This document shows, piece after piece, positions 30,792-60,216 of a DNA stretch of 64,000 nucleotides. Origin of the DNA: a bacterium (lineage in GTDB: Bacteria > 4484-113 > JAGGVC01); the NCBI GenBank assembly GCA_039961635.1, contig JABRWB010000012.1, forward strand, positions 22,273-86,272, written 5' to 3'. The position numbers and the translations under genes were made by a program. A model generated the notes under the pieces. That model ran no database searches. It saw only the letters and a program-made list of their open reading frames with translations, and had not been told where the DNA came from. Numbering within the stretch: position 1 is the first letter of the stretch; the number at the start of each line of letters is the position of its first letter.

Positions 30792-33272
30792 TTGCGGTTC
30801 CGCGTTTCCATTACGGGCATCGTCCAGGGCGTCGGCTTTCGTCCGAACGTTCACAAGCTGGCGGAGCGCTTCGGAATCCGCGGCTGGGTGCTCAACAATT
30901 CAAGCGGCGTCACGATGGAGATCGAGCCGCCTCCCGGGGGCGGAAAAAACGAGCTGACGCGCTTCCTGCTTGCCCTAAAGGACGAAGCTCCGCCGCTTGC
31001 GAAAATCCTTACGATTGAAGCCATCGAGCTTCCGGCCGTCGGTTTCGCCGGATTCGAAATCCGCGACAGCGAGCGGCTTCCCGGCGAGCTTACGCTTATA
31101 AGCCCGGACGTCGCGCTTTGCGCGGACTGCAAAGCCGAGCTGTTCGATCCGGGCGACCGGCGCCATCTGTATCCGTTCATCAACTGCACAAACTGCGGGC
31201 CGCGCTATTCGATAATCCGCTCGATTCCCTACGACCGGCCGAACACAACGATGGCCGCGTTTACGATGTGCGATGCGTGCGCGGCGGAATACTCCGACGT
31301 CGGCGACCGCCGCTATCACGCCCAGCCTGATTGCTGCCCCGCCTGCGGTCCGTCGGTCGAGCTTGTGGATTTCACCGGTGTTAAAATTGCGGGGGGGGAG
31401 TCAGATGAAACCGGTGCGATTGCGGTCTGCGCGCGCATGATCCTGGACGGCAAAATCGTCGCGATTAAAGGCGTCGGTGGATTCCACCTGGCATGCGACG
31501 CGTCGAATCCCGCGGCGGTCGGCCTTCTGCGCGCCCGCAAACGTCGAGCCCGGGCAAAACCTTTTGCCGTAATGGTGCGCGATCTCAAATCCGCGCTTGA
31601 AATCTGCGATGTTTCGGAACTTGAGGCGTCGCTGATTTCTTCCACCGCAGCGCCGATTATGCTTCTAAAGCGCGCGCGCTTGGAGCGGCATCCGGTCGCT
31701 TCCGAAGTCGCCCCGGGCCAATCCAGGCTGGGCGTTATGATTGCGTACGCGCCGCTGCATCACGTGATTTTCCACTGGCTTGAGCGATTGCGCGTTTCTC
31801 CGCTTGAATCCAAGGATACGCGTCTGGACAAAGCGGGTGTCCCCCGTTCCATCATCCTGGTCATGACCAGCGCGAATATTTCCGAAGAGCCGCTGGTCTC
31901 GCAAAACCGCGAAGCGCTGGAAAAACTTTCCGGCCTTGCGGACGCTTTGCTTATGCACAACCGGGACATCCACGCGAAATGCGACGACAGCGTTGCGCGC
32001 GTGGTTTCGGGACGCATCCAGCTGATCCGCCACAGCCGGGGCTTTTCGCCGCATCCAGTCAGTTTCGCATCGGACGGACCGCAGGTTTTGGGAGTGGGCG
32101 CCGAGAAAAAAAACACCTTCGCGCTTTCGCGCGGCCGCTTCGGTTTTCTCTCTCCGCACATGGGTGATATGGAAAATCTCGAAACGATGCGGTTTTTCGA
32201 GGAAACGCTGGAACATTACAAATCGCTTTTTTCAATCGAGCCCGAAGCGGTCGCGTGCGACCTTCATCCGGATTACCTCGCGACGAAGTGGGCGGAGGAA
32301 TACACCGCACGCAACGGGCTGCCGCTTTACCGCGTCCAGCACCACCACGCGCACATGGCGTCCGTCCTTGCGGAGCATGGCGAGGCCGGCCCCGCGCTGG
32401 GCGTATCATTCGACGGCACCGGCTACGGCCCGGACGGTACGCTGTGGGGGGGGGAGTTTCTATGGGGCGGTCTTTCGGATTACCGTCGATTCGGCAAGTT
32501 TTTTCCGCTCAAACTGCCGGGGGGCGAGGGTGCAATCAAGGAGCCATGGCGCGTCGCGCTCGCGGCTTTGTCCACGCTCGACGACGGGGAACTCGCCGGA
32601 GCCGCGCGGTCGCTTCTGGAAAAGCGGCTTTCTGCGGACGCAATCCCCGTTGACAAAATCGCCGACGTACGCCGGATGATCGATCGAAACGCGAACTGCG
32701 TTGCCACTTCGTCCTGCGGCCGCTTGTTCGACGCCATCAGCGCGCTCGTCGGGTTATGCCATACCGCAAGCTATGAAGGTCAGGCGGCGATGCTGCTGGA
32801 GGAGGCGATGGGCGATCCGCTGGCCTGGCGGGGCGAACTTGATCCGTACCGCTGGCGGTGGCGGGAGGCGCGGCCGACGGAGGCCATCGCCGGCTTTCTT
32901 TCAAGCGAAGACGGAGGCGGGCATCCGCCGCCGATAGTGCTGGACTGGCGCCCGCTCGTCGAGGATGCTTGCAAGGATCTGCTTTCGGGATTGTCGCTCG
33001 CGCGCATTTCGGCGAGGTTCCACCTTGCGATTGTGGACATAGTATGCGACGCGGCTTTTCGCGCGCACACCGTTCTCGGAGCGGAAATCGTCGCGCTTTC
33101 CGGCGGATGTTTCCAGAACGCCTTTTTGGTGGAAGAAATAACGCGCCGCCTGCCGAAAACGCGGTTCCGCGTTCTCACCGGCTCGCTCGTGCCGCCCAAC
33201 GACGCGGGAGTATCTCTCGGTCAAGTGGCATCCGCGCGTGCGGCGATTGGTAAATCCGGTGCGCAGGGTTGA
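30792..33272 (+). CDS. hypF: [NiFe]-hydrogenase maturation carbamoyltransferase HypF.
   Basis: Acylphosphatase domain (VQGVGFRP); two Zn-finger motifs (CADCKAELFDPGDRRHLYPFINCTNCGPRYSI and CDACAAEYSDVGDRRYHAQPDCCPACGP); YrdC and Kae1-like C-terminal domains. TTG start per the track. Confidence 0.9.
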   Translation: MRFRVSITGIVQGVGFRPNVHKLAERFGIRGWVLNNSSGVTMEIEPPPGGGKNELTRFLLALKDEAPPLAKILTIEAIELPAVGFAGFEIRDSERLPGELTLISPDVALCADCKAELFDPGDRRHLYPFINCTNCGPRYSIIRSIPYDRPNTTMAAFTMCDACAAEYSDVGDRRYHAQPDCCPACGPSVELVDFTGVKIAGGESDETGAIAVCARMILDGKIVAIKGVGGFHLACDASNPAAVGLLRARKRRARAKPFAVMVRDLKSALEICDVSELEASLISSTAAPIMLLKRARLERHPVASEVAPGQSRLGVMIAYAPLHHVIFHWLERLRVSPLESKDTRLDKAGVPRSIILVMTSANISEEPLVSQNREALEKLSGLADALLMHNRDIHAKCDDSVARVVSGRIQLIRHSRGFSPHPVSFASDGPQVLGVGAEKKNTFALSRGRFGFLSPHMGDMENLETMRFFEETLEHYKSLFSIEPEAVACDLHPDYLATKWAEEYTARNGLPLYRVQHHHAHMASVLAEHGEAGPALGVSFDGTGYGPDGTLWGGEFLWGGLSDYRRFGKFFPLKLPGGEGAIKEPWRVALAALSTLDDGELAGAARSLLEKRLSADAIPVDKIADVRRMIDRNANCVATSSCGRLFDAISALVGLCHTASYEGQAAMLLEEAMGDPLAWRGELDPYRWRWREARPTEAIAGFLSSEDGGGHPPPIVLDWRPLVEDACKDLLSGLSLARISARFHLAIVDIVCDAAFRAHTVLGAEIVALSGGCFQNAFLVEEITRRLPKTRFRVLTGSLVPPNDAGVSLGQVASARAAIGKSGAQG

Positions 33273-36419: not shown

Positions 36420-36455
36420 AAAAAAGGGAAGCCGGCGCGTAGCCGGACTTCCCTT
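36420..36455 (-). terminator. Rho-independent terminator of the MarR-like plus Cys-rich-protein operon.
   Basis: Hairpin GGGAAGCCGGC-gcgta-GCCGGACTTCCC (36426-36455), followed on the minus strand by a U6 run (A-run 36420-36425 on the top strand), 12 nt downstream of the 36467 stop. Confidence 0.55.
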
Positions 36456-36466
36456 GAAACCGGATG

Positions 36467-36676
36467 TTACTTGCAGCAGGAATCTCCGTCGCCGTCGTCC
36501 TTGCAGCATTCGCAATCGCAATTGCATCCGCAAGAGCAACAGCTGCAGGTGCACTGGCCTCTAAGGAACGCCTGGATGCGCTCGCCCCACTCGGCGCGGA
36601 TTTCCTCGTCCTCGCTTTCGACCGTGAGCATGTAGCCCTTGTCGGTCTTCGTGAGCTTGATCGTCAACATGTCCAT
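36467..36676 (-). CDS. Small (69-aa) cysteine-rich protein, metallothionein-like (12 Cys in the last 30 residues).
   Basis: MDMLTIKLTKTDKGYMLTVESEDEEIRAEWGERIQAFLRGQ-CTCSCCSCGCNCDCECCKDDGDGDSCCK. SD GGAGG lies 7 nt before the ATG. Follows the MarR-like gene by 55 nt. Followed by a terminator. Confidence 0.6.
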   Translation of the reverse strand: MDMLTIKLTKTDKGYMLTVESEDEEIRAEWGERIQAFLRGQCTCSCCSCGCNCDCECCKDDGDGDSCCK

Positions 36677-36733
36677 CGGACAACCTCCGTAAATCAGTTT
36701 AGAGTTTAGATTTGAGAGTTTTGAGTTGGAAAA

Positions 36734-37309
36734 TCAGCAGCAAGTGCCGCCTTCGGATTTTTCGAACGCGGAGATCAGCTCCTCAAGCGCGTCAACGACA
36801 TTCTTCCGCCGATCGCTCGGAATCATGCCAAGAACGTCTTCCAGAAAGCCGATTTTTCGCGAACGGATTTTCGCGGCAACGTCCGCTCCCCGCCCCGTGC
36901 AACACAGCCGGATGACCCTTCTGTCGCCGCCCTCGACGCGCTCCACAAATCCCGCCGACACAAGCGGATCGACGTGACGCGTCAGCGTTGATGCGGACAC
37001 GCCCGTCTGCTCCGCCAGCGTCGCGCACGTGCAGCCGGGGCAAAGGCAGAGCGTTTCGAGGGTGCGGCACTGGGCCGGCGTCAGCCCGTCGCAGCAGGGA
37101 GCAGCCTCGTCCCGGGAAAGCGCTTTCCCGAGCCGTCGCAGCACTGCATCCAGCCTGTGCGCTAGTGCATGGATTCCGCCGCGCCGGGAAGCCGCGCCGC
37201 AGGAGCCTGACGCACAGCAGCATTCGCCCTGCCTTGAAAGGACAGCGGCCGGCGGGAGCTCTCCGCGGCGGGCGGGGCCGGACTTTGGTTTTGCAGCCTG
37301 ATTCGCCAA
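36734..37309 (-). CDS. MarR-family transcriptional regulator with Cys-rich N- and C-terminal extensions.
   Basis: Winged-HTH core LTPAQCRTLETLC...ATLAEQTGVSASTLTRHVDPLVSAGFVERVEGGDRRVIRLCCTGRG. Cys clusters ECCCASGSCG, PCCDG, CLCPGCTC, and terminal GGTCC. Confidence 0.7.
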   Translation of the reverse strand: MANQAAKPKSGPARRGELPPAAVLSRQGECCCASGSCGAASRRGGIHALAHRLDAVLRRLGKALSRDEAAPCCDGLTPAQCRTLETLCLCPGCTCATLAEQTGVSASTLTRHVDPLVSAGFVERVEGGDRRVIRLCCTGRGADVAAKIRSRKIGFLEDVLGMIPSDRRKNVVDALEELISAFEKSEGGTCC

Positions 37310-37588
37310 CCTTTAACTCTCCTTGGATTCAACCGTCCGGACTTGAGGCCGCCGCCAAGACAAGAAAGCACGCAGGGACGAAGATACAAGGCCAATACGG
37401 CTCAATCAATCAAGCCGCATTCGCATCCTGCCTCCGGCCAAGCGGCTCGCAACGCCGCCGTCCAGATAGTTGTAGATTACAAATATCAGATATTCGAAGG
37501 ATTGTCAAGTAGAAAATGTGGTTTCGCTCAAAATGCTTATGCGCTGTATCCGATCGTTCCGCAAGGCCTGATGCGACGAATCCGCCTG

Positions 37589-40500
37589 TCAAAGAGTTTC
37601 CCCCCAGCGGTAACCGATTTGGCCCGCATCCCGCTCGTCTATCACGCCGTCCGCGTTGCAGTCGAACAGCGGATTGAATCCGGTGTCGGCGCTCGTCAGG
37701 AAAAGCACATCCGAGAAGCCGTCGAGATCACCTTCGCCGACCGTCCCGTCGCCGTTGGTATCGCCCACTAGGTTATACAGCCAAAATGGAAGCGAAATAG
37801 GGATCGATGAATCCCCGTTCGAGTTGAACGCCGTCACTACAACCTGCGCCCTTTGATTCGGAAGGGCGTTGTTTCCCACGCTGAAAGTGACGCCGAACGG
37901 CTCGTCCGAGATTTGGAACAATTGGTCGTACTCATCCTCCCGGCCGAGAGGCGCGTAATCCAGCCTGTATTCCACTCTTTCGACATAGGTAAGGCCGCTG
38001 ACCGAAAACGTCGCACTGTATTGATTCGTGATCTTTCCGAATATCCCGCTCGGGTTCATCGAGGCCTGCTCCACCACCGGCCATTTGAGAACGACGGACC
38101 GGTTGTTGATTTCGACGTCGTCCAGCCATGCGCCAATTCCGTTTGTCTGGTCGTTCCCCCACGCCCACCAGCAAAGCGCGCCCGAATATCCCTTGTAGTT
38201 GTTCAGCGGGAACAGCTCCTGGTACCAATCCGGCCGGTCGTTCGCCCATCCGCCGATCCACATGTAACCTTCCCAAGTGTTGTAAAGGTAAAGCCCGCCG
38301 CCGAAACCGTCCGGCAAATCCGCCTTGAACCAGTACGCAAGCACCGGATCGTCGACCGCGTCGCCCGCAAGATCCACGCATTGACGTCCCGCGGCCGGCG
38401 TAAGCCCGGAGTACCATAATCCTTCGCTGTTGTATTGTCCGAACGGCGCTTCATAGCCGAACGAAGTCGGCGCGGAGTGCGAGTCGGTCGTGACCGGCCG
38501 CCAGTCCGGCGCAATTCCGTCGGAGCCGTATCCCCAGTTATCAGTGCCGCCTTCAAGGTCGTCGAAAATCGGATAGGGGCGGTCGTTTTTCCACTTGAGC
38601 GAGATTGACGCAGGCTCGGACGGCAGTCCGTCGTTGTCCTCCGAAATCACCTTCAGGACGATATTCGGATGGTTGTCGTCGTCAAGTGTATTTCGAGTGT
38701 ATTCCCAGGGAGCATCTTCATCAGTGGAAACCAGCCAGTCGTGCAGATAGAAATACACGCGCTCGACAGCGTTGTCGTCCGATGCGTCCGCGGTGAAGGT
38801 TGCATCGCCTGAAATGACGTCGCCTTCGATGTGGCTTGTGATGGCCGCGGTAGGCGGATCGCTCGGCGCTTCCCGGAGCATGAAATCGTCTATGTTCGCT
38901 CCAAGCCCCGCGTCCGCGGTCGGATGCACCGAGCCGGTGTACCTCAGCTCTATGTATGCGCCGGTGCCTTGCAATTCGAAAGTGCGGTTCCAGAGCGTCC
39001 ATCCCCAGTTTGGCTGCACCCTGTCCACAAGCCGCCAGGTCGCGCCTTCGTCGGTGGTCGCGTAAACCTCGAACGTATCGCGCGATCGGTAGAAAAATTT
39101 CATGTGTATCCGGTTCGTGAATCCGGATATGTCGACGCGCTGGCTGCGCAGCTTGTCCTTGTTAGCATTGTGCCAGGTGTCTGCTCCGCCGTACGGGCGC
39201 ACCCAAGCCTCGTTGCCGGCGCCGAGCGGCGCGGGATCGCCGGGGCTGGTTCGCGTGTCCCATGCGGTGTATTGCCCGCCGGGTTCGCGCGGAGCGTTGA
39301 GGATTTTCCACTTGAATAAACCGCTTTCGAAATCGTCGGAAAGCGTTGTCACCCCGGCGTTGTCCACGGTCACGAAAATCGTGTCGGATGCGGACTGGCC
39401 GTTCCCGTCGAATGCGCGCGCGGTGATTTCAACCGATTTGTTGAACTCGACACGCGTGTTCCATGCGTAGTTGTACGGCGCGGAAGTCAGGTCCGCGGTC
39501 CATTCGCCGTCGATGAAAAGCTCGACTTTTGAAATCGAATCGTCGTCCGCCGCATCTACTGAAATCACTTCTCCGCCGCTTACGGTATCTCCCGGCCCCG
39601 GAGAAGTAATAGCGACCGACGGCGCGGAATCCGGATACAAAAGAATGTCTGCCGTCATCACCGCGCCGGCGGGAGAAATGTTGTTGACCGTGATTCCGGT
39701 GGGCGCGCCGGAGTAGTCGTTGGAATTGGGATAAGTGACCGGCGATAACGAAGTTCCTTCCGTGTAATAATCGCCGGCGTTCGCTCCCCCACCGTTTTCG
39801 ATTTCATCCAGTCCGTCCGCCTCCATAAGCTTGATGTACTTGTGGTCGGTGTACGAGTTGTTGTAACGCGTTCCCCCCCCTTCGTCGACGCGCGCATCTA
39901 TATGCCATATCAGAAGACCGCTGTTTGGATACCCTGCGTCCGAGCCTTCGGCCTGCCTGTTTTCGATCATGAAATATTCGGCCCACGGCGTCACGCCGTC
40001 GAACCATGGCATCGCAAGCACCGCGTCCGGATTTGCAATCACTTTGTCCAGCTGCTCTCCCGGCAGATTCGTGAACGTGATCGTTGGGGAAAGCCAGCCG
40101 AGCATATATTTGCTGAAGCAGCAATGCCCGCCCCAGCCGCCCATCATGTCGAGCCCGCCCACTCCGCCGCGCTCGCCCACCGAATCATCGTAGTCGTAAT
40201 AATCGGGCAGCCCAAGTCCGTGGCCGGTTTCGTGAATGACGGTTCCGGGATCCCACACTTCCGGAAGCGGCGGCTCCTCACCGAAGTAGTACCATCGCTC
40301 CGGCTGCCATGAGTAGCTTCCGAATTCGACGCCGTCCAGCGAAAATCCGCCCATCCACATCGCGAATCCCCACCAGTAAGTCGCCCAATCGCCGTTTGGC
40401 CCGGTCCAGAGAATCGTGAACCCGTCCACCAGGCCGTCCTTGTCGTTGTCGTACTGCGAAAAATCCACGCCCGCGTCGTCCGCCGCGGTCAGCGCTTCGA

Positions 40501-41197
40501 TAATGAGCTCGCGCTGGCGCTCCCCGTCGGTCGGCAATCCTTCGTTTTGATCGGGATGGTAATAGTCGCGTGTCCGGCTGGCCATATGCCAGGAAAAAAC
40601 ATCGCCCGTTATCTGAAGCTGGCCGTAGCTCTGCTCCAAATAATACTGTCGCAGGCCTATGTACGGCGCGCCGGGATCGCCGTCGCCGTAAAGCACGTCG
40701 TCGAACTGCTCTTCGGTGAAATAATGCGGGTAATTGGGGAATTCAATCGGCAGGCAGAACATCTTGACCGTACCGATTGAGGGGAGGACCGCAGTGTCCC
40801 TTGGCATTTCGAATCCGAGAACCAGCAGGTCGCGTTCGTCCACGACGCGGTCGTGATTAAGGTCGTATTCGATGTACGAAAGCTCGCGCGACGTGCTGCG
40901 GCCGATTTCGCTCGCGGATTTGCCGTCGAGCGAGCGGCCGAGATTGGCGAGTATTCCGTCGGCGATTTCGCGAGGACTCAATGCAGCGATTTCGAGCGCG
41001 CCGCGCTTGGGTACTTTTGCTTCCCAATTGCCGAGCCTTTTCGCGTTTTCGAGCGCCTCGGCGTAAGTACCTTCGCGCTTCATCCGCTCGATCATTCCGG
41101 GCTTGGGCGGCTCAAGCGCAAAAGCATGGCATGGCAACAAAACCGGAACAGCGAAAATCGCGGCAACCGGAATAAGAAGGGCAGGGGAGGATTTCAT
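37589..41197 (-). CDS. Secreted M6-family (immune inhibitor A-like) metalloprotease with Ig-like/PPC-like modules and a C-terminal dockerin-like module.
   Basis: Signal peptide MKSSPALLIPVAAIFAVPVLLPCHAFA. M6 zinc site TVIHETGHGLGLPDYYD. The C-terminus VGDTNGDGTVGEGDLDGFSDVLFL...FDCNADGVIDERDAGQIGYRWG is a two-segment dockerin-like Ca-binding repeat. Confidence 0.85.
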   Translation of the reverse strand: MKSSPALLIPVAAIFAVPVLLPCHAFALEPPKPGMIERMKREGTYAEALENAKRLGNWEAKVPKRGALEIAALSPREIADGILANLGRSLDGKSASEIGRSTSRELSYIEYDLNHDRVVDERDLLVLGFEMPRDTAVLPSIGTVKMFCLPIEFPNYPHYFTEEQFDDVLYGDGDPGAPYIGLRQYYLEQSYGQLQITGDVFSWHMASRTRDYYHPDQNEGLPTDGERQRELIIEALTAADDAGVDFSQYDNDKDGLVDGFTILWTGPNGDWATYWWGFAMWMGGFSLDGVEFGSYSWQPERWYYFGEEPPLPEVWDPGTVIHETGHGLGLPDYYDYDDSVGERGGVGGLDMMGGWGGHCCFSKYMLGWLSPTITFTNLPGEQLDKVIANPDAVLAMPWFDGVTPWAEYFMIENRQAEGSDAGYPNSGLLIWHIDARVDEGGGTRYNNSYTDHKYIKLMEADGLDEIENGGGANAGDYYTEGTSLSPVTYPNSNDYSGAPTGITVNNISPAGAVMTADILLYPDSAPSVAITSPGPGDTVSGGEVISVDAADDDSISKVELFIDGEWTADLTSAPYNYAWNTRVEFNKSVEITARAFDGNGQSASDTIFVTVDNAGVTTLSDDFESGLFKWKILNAPREPGGQYTAWDTRTSPGDPAPLGAGNEAWVRPYGGADTWHNANKDKLRSQRVDISGFTNRIHMKFFYRSRDTFEVYATTDEGATWRLVDRVQPNWGWTLWNRTFELQGTGAYIELRYTGSVHPTADAGLGANIDDFMLREAPSDPPTAAITSHIEGDVISGDATFTADASDDNAVERVYFYLHDWLVSTDEDAPWEYTRNTLDDDNHPNIVLKVISEDNDGLPSEPASISLKWKNDRPYPIFDDLEGGTDNWGYGSDGIAPDWRPVTTDSHSAPTSFGYEAPFGQYNSEGLWYSGLTPAAGRQCVDLAGDAVDDPVLAYWFKADLPDGFGGGLYLYNTWEGYMWIGGWANDRPDWYQELFPLNNYKGYSGALCWWAWGNDQTNGIGAWLDDVEINNRSVVLKWPVVEQASMNPSGIFGKITNQYSATFSVSGLTYVERVEYRLDYAPLGREDEYDQLFQISDEPFGVTFSVGNNALPNQRAQVVVTAFNSNGDSSIPISLPFWLYNLVGDTNGDGTVGEGDLDGFSDVLFLTSADTGFNPLFDCNADGVIDERDAGQIGYRWGETL

Positions 41198-59823: not shown

Positions 59824-60216
59824 TTAGGTTTGGTCTTTGATAACTGTCGAAGCCCAGGCAAAAACGGCTTCCGCCAATTCAATCGCCTCAGCCAAATCCT
59901 GCTCGGTCGCATCTCTGTCCGGGCCCGGATACCTTAATGTCGTGGCGTAGTCGGTTAGGGAAAACGCGGCTGCAAGTTCCGCCGGGAATTCGGTGAATTC
60001 GGCTACTTTCCCTGCCAACGCTTCAATATCGTGTACCCAGGGAGGTTCCACGCCGAAGGATAAAATTACGGCTTTCAGCGATTTCTCCACGCACTGGTGA
60101 GCGCCGTTGCACAGCTCCTCGATGCAAACGCCCTCGGGGCGTTCCACCTTGGCTAGATTCAGATTGCTGCGAGCGATAACAAGCCAATCCGCTGGCGAGC
60201 CGGATTCAGGATTCAT
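59824..60216 (-). CDS. hepT: HEPN-domain toxin (HepT-like) of a type VII toxin-antitoxin pair.
   Basis: 130-aa HEPN-like protein. Overlaps the upstream MNT gene by 11 nt. Confidence 0.75.
   Translation of the reverse strand: MNPESGSPADWLVIARSNLNLAKVERPEGVCIEELCNGAHQCVEKSLKAVILSFGVEPPWVHDIEALAGKVAEFTEFPAELAAAFSLTDYATTLRYPGPDRDATEQDLAEAIELAEAVFAWASTVIKDQT

Follow-up and report, generated by a model that had tools for sequence, protein, structure and literature searches.

Bacteria resist arsenic and antimony by efflux, redox change, methylation or acetylation, under the control of ArsR regulators and, since 2021, also of MarR_ars regulators. This report concerns a two-gene operon on a stretch of 64,000 nucleotides (nt) of bacterial DNA (contig JABRWB010000012.1, positions 22,273 to 86,272; hereafter the window), which encodes a cysteine-rich regulator of 191 amino acids (aa) resembling MarR_ars and a 69-aa protein with a cysteine-rich tail. 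The Zn-sensing proteins AdcR and ZitR are the only characterised metalloregulators of the MarR family according to a 2024 review (PMC11672702), and the preprint on MarR_ars adds a metalloid class to them (Yu et al., 2021, bioRxiv 10.1101/2021.08.12.456183). In that preprint, MarR_ars is shown experimentally to be an autorepressor that leaves the DNA on exposure to As(III) or Sb(III); Cys36, Cys37 and Cys157 are conserved, mutation of these residues compromises the response, and the genes lie upstream of arsV, arsN or arsP.

The window regulator shares with AdMarR_ars of Achromobacter sp. As-55 the MarR fold, a vicinal cysteine pair before helix 2, a C-terminal cysteine and, presumably, an autoregulated promoter. 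It scores with the ars-linked MarRs, and a TTGYA-N3-TRCAA operator is common to it and the members linked to arsP or arsM. It differs from the described MarR_ars proteins in that its gene lies outside an ars cluster, its sole putative target is the cysteine-rich 69-aa protein, it carries 12 additional cysteines (in an N-terminal CCC..C tail, at C81, in a CxCxxCxC motif and in a CC pair of the wing), and its ortholog has lost the loop pair. The logic of the operon recalls SmtB-SmtA, a cyanobacterial Zn sensor of the ArsR family with its metallothionein, and the mycobacterial Cu(I) system RicR/CsoR-MymT, in both of which a repressor released by a thiophilic ion stands over a small cysteine-rich sequesterer. 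In contrast to these systems, the window regulator has a MarR fold and not that of ArsR or CsoR, and the small protein, which possesses a separate N-domain predicted to fold, is homologous to neither SmtA/BmtA nor MymT. AdcR and ZitR are likewise metal sensors of MarR fold, and ZitR is among the top structural matches of the window regulator; however, they bind metal at His/Glu sites and Zn activates their DNA binding, thereby co-repressing uptake genes, whereas the putative sites of the window regulator are cysteine thiolates and derepression is expected. Vicinal cysteine pairs and cysteine triads also serve as As(III)/Sb(III) ligands in the metallochaperone ArsD and in the As(III) S3 sites of ArsR, but no relationship in sequence or fold connects these proteins to the pair described here, and the window holds no ArsA/ArsB partner. 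CopY, finally, resembles the window regulator in being a winged-helix repressor and in having thiolates clustered as CxC...CxC; its Cu(I)/Zn switch is a C-terminal CXCX4CXC in a protein of the BlaI/MecI family, whereas the corresponding motif here, CLCPGCTC (CxCxxCxC, residues 87-94), lies at the junction of helices 2 and 3 of a MarR fold.

The assignment of the regulator to the arsenic-type subfamily draws on the genomic context of its relatives, on cysteine positions and on profile scores. A tblastn search of the regulator against 72,556 plasmids returned 37 matches at E < 1e-5; 35 of them fall in genera that were sampled by representative loci and in which the inspected MarR gene heads an ars operon. 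The inspected contexts are of two kinds. The MarR gene heads a cassette of arsN1 and a flavoprotein/oxidoreductase gene beside arsR/arsD/arsA/ACR3 in Niallia, P. nitroreducens and C. felsineum, and the operon of an ArsP_1 permease in B. cereus (pBc10987) and Priestia. Translational coupling to the arsenite methyltransferase ArsM (282 bits, cutoff 263) is seen in a remoter relative, P0004. Not every top match is of this type, as the match on a Streptomyces plasmid (L027) is a generic MarR without the cysteine signature. The arsN-linked MarR of P. nitroreducens has cysteine pairs at positions 36/37 and 157/158, which align (alignment A7) with C71/C72 of the window regulator, just before helix 2, and with C190/C191. 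C71/C72 and C190 also align with the corresponding cysteines of five other ars-linked MarRs, so that all three cysteines of the MarR_ars signature are present, and C190 is invariant in all eight aligned sequences. A hidden Markov model (HMM) of six ars-linked MarRs gave the window regulator 88.7 bits and its ortholog in a second lineage (contig L001, see below) 77.0 bits, compared with 59.7 bits for the best of nine generic MarR controls, which had been chosen as the next-best matches of the query. When each member was left out of the model in turn, the window protein scored 76-92 bits, the held-out members 84-156 and the generic MarRs at most 61. As judged from these sequence comparisons, the regulator fits a divergent, hyper-cysteinylated member of MarR_ars. 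An earlier note on this DNA had regarded a MarR sensor bearing thiolates as undescribed; this does not hold, as MarR_ars is exactly such a class, and the regulator has its three cysteines, its scores and its operator. The expectation of the same note that the regulator senses via thiolates is most likely correct.

Two small side observations concern these arsenic-linked loci. The MarR_ars-arsP operons of the B. cereus pBc10987 and Priestia plasmids end in a gene for a hydrophilic peptide of 44-46 aa with two vicinal cysteine pairs (MGLLSIFKRDKKEKDCCNIEIIEIKDEQSEKESCCSKNTEKEDKNS; L024:5419-5559 and L025:5432-5566). It is annotated as hypothetical and is not homologous to the small-protein family of the window. 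It represents another small CC-peptide under a MarR_ars-type regulator. In the MarR_ars-headed arsenic island of C. felsineum, a protein of a C-GCAxxG-C-C family is encoded between an ArsN1-like acetyltransferase and arsR (L026:4962-5393).

The control region offers a further line of evidence. A block of 46 bp on the minus strand (37465..37510) is identical between the window and L001 at 36 positions (78%), while the intergenic DNA on its two sides is just 38% and 21% identical. This block contains a -35 hexamer TTGACA (37503..37508, read from the sequence and invariant in L001) and, 17 nt after it, a candidate -10 element TATTTG (37480..37485), which is identical in L001. A consensus promoter scanner called no promoter here, the -10 element being weak, and the promoter assignment therefore rests on conservation. 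Two palindromes follow each other in the block. The perfect palindrome AATATCnGATATT (37482..37494) has its sole exact match in the window here, and is also found upstream of the regulator in L001, L011, L013 and L016. The adjoining TTGTA-N3-TACAA (37470..37482), extended as TTGTAATCTACAACTATC to 37465, is probably the operator of MarR_ars type. The 64 kb contain a single site of the degenerate form TTGYA-N3-TRCAA, scored once per strand owing to its palindromic nature; by chance, 0.34 hits would be expected. The motif is present at the equivalent position in L001/L011, in the arsM-linked locus L002 (as TTGTATATTACAACTATC), three times in B. cereus (L024; two sites upstream of the MarR gene and one between it and arsP) and twice in Priestia (L025). 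With one mismatch it also precedes the genes of P. nitroreducens and C. felsineum (L023, L026), and it was not found in five generic MarR loci. An operator common to loci across phyla thus supports membership in the MarR_ars subfamily independently of the protein comparison. As is usual for a MarR regulator, the putative operator is palindromic and lies in the regulator's own promoter: the conserved palindromes (37470-37494) overlap the candidate -10, and the position of the operator would probably place the repressor over its own -10/+1 region. The motif is new insofar as the accessible MarR_ars text does not give it. In locus L002, the P0004 protein is annotated with 206 aa, including an N-terminal extension of 34 residues (L002:5001-5103) whose codons 28-33 contain the operator TTGTATATTACAACTATC; its start looks mis-called, and the true start is probably Met35.

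Both genes lie on the minus strand and, with the operator upstream and a terminator downstream, form a single unit. The regulator gene (37309..36734) starts with TTG, encodes 15 cysteines and is preceded by a ribosome-binding site AAGGAG (37324-37319) 10 nt 5' of the start. The gene for the small protein (36676..36467) starts with ATG and follows after a spacer of 57 nt, as read from the sequence (36677..36733), which contains its own GGAGG site (36688-36684) and in which the scan called neither promoter nor terminator. Downstream lies an intrinsic terminator (36420..36455), formed by a hairpin at 36455-36424 with a 13-bp stem (-22.8 kcal/mol, z = -3.66) and a subsequent U run. Coordinates, fold and hairpin thus bear out the two-gene operon of a MarR-fold regulator, a small cysteine-rich open reading frame (ORF) and a clean terminator that the earlier note had read here, and all five cysteine clusters that it had named are present in the translation of the regulator (ECCCASGSCG, PCCDG, CLCPGCTC, LCCTG and the terminal TCC). 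Its cysteine-rich tail of the small protein also stands, with a length of 28 and not 30 residues, and the spacer has 57 and not 55 nt.

The cysteine content of the two proteins sets them apart from the rest of the window, in whose other ORFs cysteine makes up 1.1% of residues. Against this background, the 15 cysteines among the 191 residues of the regulator have a binomial P of ~6e-9; for the small ORF, a P of ~9e-13 was computed for at least 13 cysteines in 69 residues, the actual count being 12. The two adjacent ORFs rank first and second in cysteine density among 667 six-frame ORFs of at least 30 aa, the small ORF being the most cysteine-dense of the window. Tandem Repeats Finder detected no tandem DNA repeat under the cysteine tail.

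The pair is conserved in a second lineage. Among 5.8 billion protein clusters, the regulator has a single close relative, P0003 (58% identity), which is encoded on contigs L001, L011, L013 and L014. An ORF of 72 aa (MNLLTIKVTDTEKGFSLLIESDNEELRAEWGERILAFFAGKCGCGCGCGGGSCGCHGDEEEKGEAKEGSCCS) lies 85 nt downstream of the P0003 gene and is 56% identical to the small protein of the window. Between the window lineage and L001/L011, where dS is above 1, the ratio of nonsynonymous to synonymous substitutions (dN/dS) amounts to 0.22 in the regulator; the small ORF has a ratio of 0.29 (0.21 for its N-domain, 0.41 for its tail). Both ORFs are therefore real genes under purifying selection, and the question whether the small ORF is kept in a related genome is answered by the retention of the pair in L001/L011. 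The neighbours of the operon differ between the lineages, being an M6-type peptidase and rluD in the window and gdhA and a convergent histidine kinase in L011, so that the conserved unit consists of promoter, regulator, small ORF and terminator.

With regard to fold, the regulator exceeds the Pfam gathering cutoffs of MarR_2 (27 bits) and MarR (24.6 bits), scoring 41.3 and 36.2 bits, respectively. Its AlphaFold2 (AF2) model shows helices at residues 39-69, 78-89, 95-102, 106-118, 139-160 and 165-186, the sixth helix thus being present, and a wing of strands 122-126 and 133-137; disorder is predicted for the N-terminal 40 residues, where CCC...C is located. The top Foldseek matches in the PDB are all MarR proteins (FabT, Rv0880, ZitR, SlyA and MarR), and a sequence search of the PDB places Tm0710 first (E 2.4e-7, aligned over residues 75-184). 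The predicted structure is accordingly that of a MarR fold with flanking dimerisation helices, in agreement with the MarR core that had been read from the sequence before. An ArsR-like reading, suggested by the resemblance of CLCPGCTC to the CVC of helix 3 in ArsR/CadC, was rejected, because sequence and predicted fold, helix 6 included, are those of MarR: HTH_5 and NF033788 reach just 16.7 bits (cutoff 22) and 21.7 bits (cutoff 55), and the best ArsR match in the PDB has an E of 0.12.

The small protein belongs to a family of its own. Pfam and NCBIfam, precursor-family models included, gave nothing at E <= 1, and word-indexed searches with the small proteins of both lineages returned only self matches. 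Five further relatives (P0008, P0009 as a fragment, P0011, P0012 and P0014) came from an exhaustive HMM search of 1.84 billion cluster representatives, in which four other matches were discarded as spurious repeat or Big_2-type proteins. By these sequence searches the family is unannotated, with six lineages found. Its N-domain of 40 residues (36557..36676 in the window, residues 1-40) is conserved in the six lineages as M-[DE]-L-L-x-I-K-[LV]-T-x-T-E-x-G-F...S-E-D...R-x-x-W-G-x-R-I-x-x-F and is predicted by AF2 to fold as a beta-hairpin (5-11, 14-20) and a helix (24-38), with a predicted local distance difference test score (pLDDT) of 80-88. The remainder (residues 41-69 with the stop codon, 36467..36556) comprises, by translation, the tail CTCSCCSCGCNCDCECCKDDGDGDSCCK with its 28 residues and 12 cysteines, and is predicted to be disordered. 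Tails of the family vary in length, contain 5-16 cysteines in CxC/CC motifs and end in CC[KS] in four of the six lineages. The protein has the composition of a metallothionein, as it is small and rich in CxC/CC and its tail lacks aromatic residues, the Y, W and F being confined to the N-domain. It has no homology to metallothioneins: the best PDB match of the family profile is RPP1 (E 0.11), and Foldseek of the model against the PDB gave nothing at E <= 0.001, so that neither search led to a significant match. Scans of genome and metagenome contigs with an alignment of the small proteins retrieved only the L001 lineage, the other contig matches being chance occurrences of the word EELRAEWG in a heparinase-like protein and in a cyanobacterial contig, and tblastn against the plasmids found nothing.

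Taken as a model from the characterised subfamily and from the composition of the tail, the operon would work as follows. A dimer of the regulator would sit on TTGTA-N3-TACAA over the -10/+1 region of its own promoter and repress both genes. The thiolates of the regulator would bind a trivalent metalloid, either As(III) or Sb(III) and perhaps also methylarsenite, where C71/C72 before helix 2 and C190 at the C-terminus would represent the ancestral site, supplemented by CxCxxCxC at the junction of helices 2 and 3, the CC of the wing and the N-terminal cysteine tail. Binding would take the repressor off the DNA, and both genes would be transcribed. In the cytoplasm, the disordered 12-cysteine tail of the 69-aa protein could then use its thiolates to sequester or chaperone the same metalloid or a soft metal, with room for about four As(III) at three thiolates each, and the folded beta-hairpin-helix N-domain may confer solubility or oligomerisation. 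The cysteine content of the small protein mirrors the extra cysteine clusters of the regulator. We give about even chances to the proposal that the operon is autoregulated, derepressed by metalloids and makes a thiolate sink or chaperone. What would be new about it is probably the target: a MarR_ars-type regulator would control a metallothionein-like protein of an unannotated family, and not an ars enzyme or pump. A more specific version, in which the 69-aa protein founds a new metallothionein-like family for As(III)/Sb(III) under a MarR_ars repressor with extra multi-metalloid clusters, and sensor and sink together provide a graded, sequestration-based defence without an efflux pump or redox enzyme, can be put forward tentatively.

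Several observations weigh against a metalloid operon of this kind. No ars gene was found by Pfam among the 42 scanned window ORFs of at least 100 aa, a scan that left out three ORFs of 126-256 aa, and the genomic context of MarR_ars is consequently missing in the scanned ORFs. Identity to the ars-linked MarRs is just 23-30%. The ortholog P0003 lacks the loop cysteine pair and keeps CxCxxCxC, the wing CC and the terminal CC; the conserved sensing site in this clade is therefore not the classical triad, and the clade may, judging by these sequences, sense via another cluster and perhaps another soft ion. In at least three lineages (L018, L019 and L020) no MarR gene lies directly upstream of the small gene, and the operator motif was not found upstream of it in L018-L021. 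The function of the small protein is thus not intrinsically tied to this regulator, and an obligatory pairing of the small protein with MarR is not supported, two of six lineages showing it.

A module for soft transition metals would accommodate part of this. The extra cysteine clusters would then have shifted the specificity of the MarR_ars scaffold towards Cu(I), Cd(II), Zn(II) or Hg(II), and the small protein would be a true metallothionein, for which the composition of its tail is classical. The clusters common to both orthologs are indeed the clade-specific ones and not the arsenic triad, CxC...CxC recalls the Cu(I) site CXCX4CXC of CopY, and the lack of ars genes among the scanned window ORFs fits as well. 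Nevertheless, all informative relatives of the regulator have a link to arsenic, and their loci share its operator; the CopY motif is differently spaced and located elsewhere in its protein, the small protein is homologous neither to SmtA/BmtA nor to a Pfam metallothionein, and genes for Cu, Zn or Cd efflux or chaperones were not found in the window. We therefore consider a transition-metal module rather unlikely, and Cu(I), Cd or Zn, which the earlier note had favoured as ligands, give way to As(III)/Sb(III), to which the evidence points. It is less probable still that the regulator is a switch for thiol redox or for reactive sulfur and electrophiles, derepressed by oxidation, persulfidation or alkylation of its cysteines in the manner of OhrR, MexR and E. 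coli MarR, with the small protein as a sacrificial thiol buffer. Sensing by cysteine oxidation is the commonest thiol mechanism among MarRs, both proteins are extremely rich in cysteine, and the unrelated contexts of the small family would suit a general stress role. However, the conserved cysteines coincide with the As(III) triad of MarR_ars and not with the sensing cysteines of OhrR/SarZ. No OhrR-type NCBIfam model matches at E <= 1, the sole match named OhrR being the MarR-family protein P0006 (E 2.5e-4), and no peroxidase, thioredoxin or persulfide dioxygenase is co-encoded.

Two further roles for the small protein have been weighed. It could be a regulatory partner of the MarR protein, docking on it as an anti-repressor or co-sensor via a shared metal, iron-sulfur (Fe-S) or disulfide bridges, as the matching cysteine motifs of both proteins, with CC at both ends, and the predicted folded N-domain of unknown partner may suggest. 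The family members without an adjacent MarR in at least three lineages and the characterised MarR_ars, which needs no partner, make this an improbable explanation. The smallest probability is assigned to a precursor of a ribosomally synthesised and post-translationally modified peptide (RiPP), in which the N-region would be the leader, the hypervariable cysteine-rich tail the core and the MarR protein a pathway regulator, with a maturase encoded elsewhere. A conserved N-region of 40 aa followed by a highly variable cysteine-rich C-region is the usual pattern of such precursors, and SCIFF/ranthipeptide and cysteine-rich linear azole-containing peptide (LAP) precursors are likewise short, with a conserved N-part and a cysteine-rich C-part. 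The N-region is, however, predicted to fold, neither a SCIFF model nor any other NCBIfam precursor model matches, and only one copy of the gene was seen per locus. The adjoining genes have housekeeping functions, examples being rpsP, rluD and gdhA, and no radical-SAM, YcaO, Lan/lanthipeptide or MNIO protein was found beside the six family members or in the 42 scanned window ORFs, which counts against the peptide precursor that had been raised as an alternative at the outset.

If the regulator controls the small protein, arsenic-type regulation would gain a new kind of output in the metalloid-responsive operon proposed here. We came across no account of a natural thiolate sponge of the cytoplasm that is regulated by metalloids. 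Should the small protein bind As(III)/Sb(III), sequestration would be added to the bacterial ars repertoire; the protein would define a new metallothionein-like family without database annotation, and a compact cassette of sensor and binder would become available for use in biosensing or bioremediation. Irrespective of the ligand, MarR_ars probably extends to a target outside the classical ars genes, and the cross-phylum TTGYA-N3-TRCAA motif can be used to find more of its regulon.

The remaining features of the locus and its relatives are of a more descriptive nature. The 5' untranslated leader of ~160 nt (37310..37469, minus strand), which includes the AAGGAG site, is unlike that of L001, and Rfam gave nothing meaningful in the region or in this long leader. 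It contains an upstream ORF of six codons (MRMRLD; 37406-37426, minus strand) with its own GGAGG at 37435-37431, which is not kept in L001. Among the relatives of the small gene, P0008 (L018) lies in the context of an unknown 255-aa protein and is followed 40 nt downstream by the gene for a Tat-signal DUF362 protein (1157-2098), and the L019 member is accompanied by a divergently oriented gene, whose product is putatively secreted, and by a convergent one for a SpoU methylase. Divergent members from low-GC lineages (L020:176-825 and L021:71-737) lie directly upstream of rpsP (S16) and a KH-domain gene, a synteny with no obvious link to metal handling; the 175 bp upstream of the small gene in L020 are non-coding.

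Directly upstream of the operon, positions 37589-41197 (minus strand) encode a secreted protein of 1202 aa that combines a Peptidase_M6 catalytic domain with Big_7 domains and, at its C-terminus, a dockerin-like repeat, and the stop codon of this M6-type peptidase lies ~80 nt from the -35 element. Elsewhere in the window, a complete HypF carbamoyltransferase for hydrogenase maturation is encoded at 30792-33272 (plus strand), which suggests that the organism makes a [NiFe] hydrogenase and that its habitats are probably low in oxygen, a condition under which a cysteine-rich protein would remain reduced. A stand-alone HEPN-domain ORF of 130 aa (59824-60216, minus strand) is possibly one half of a HEPN/MNT toxin-antitoxin pair.

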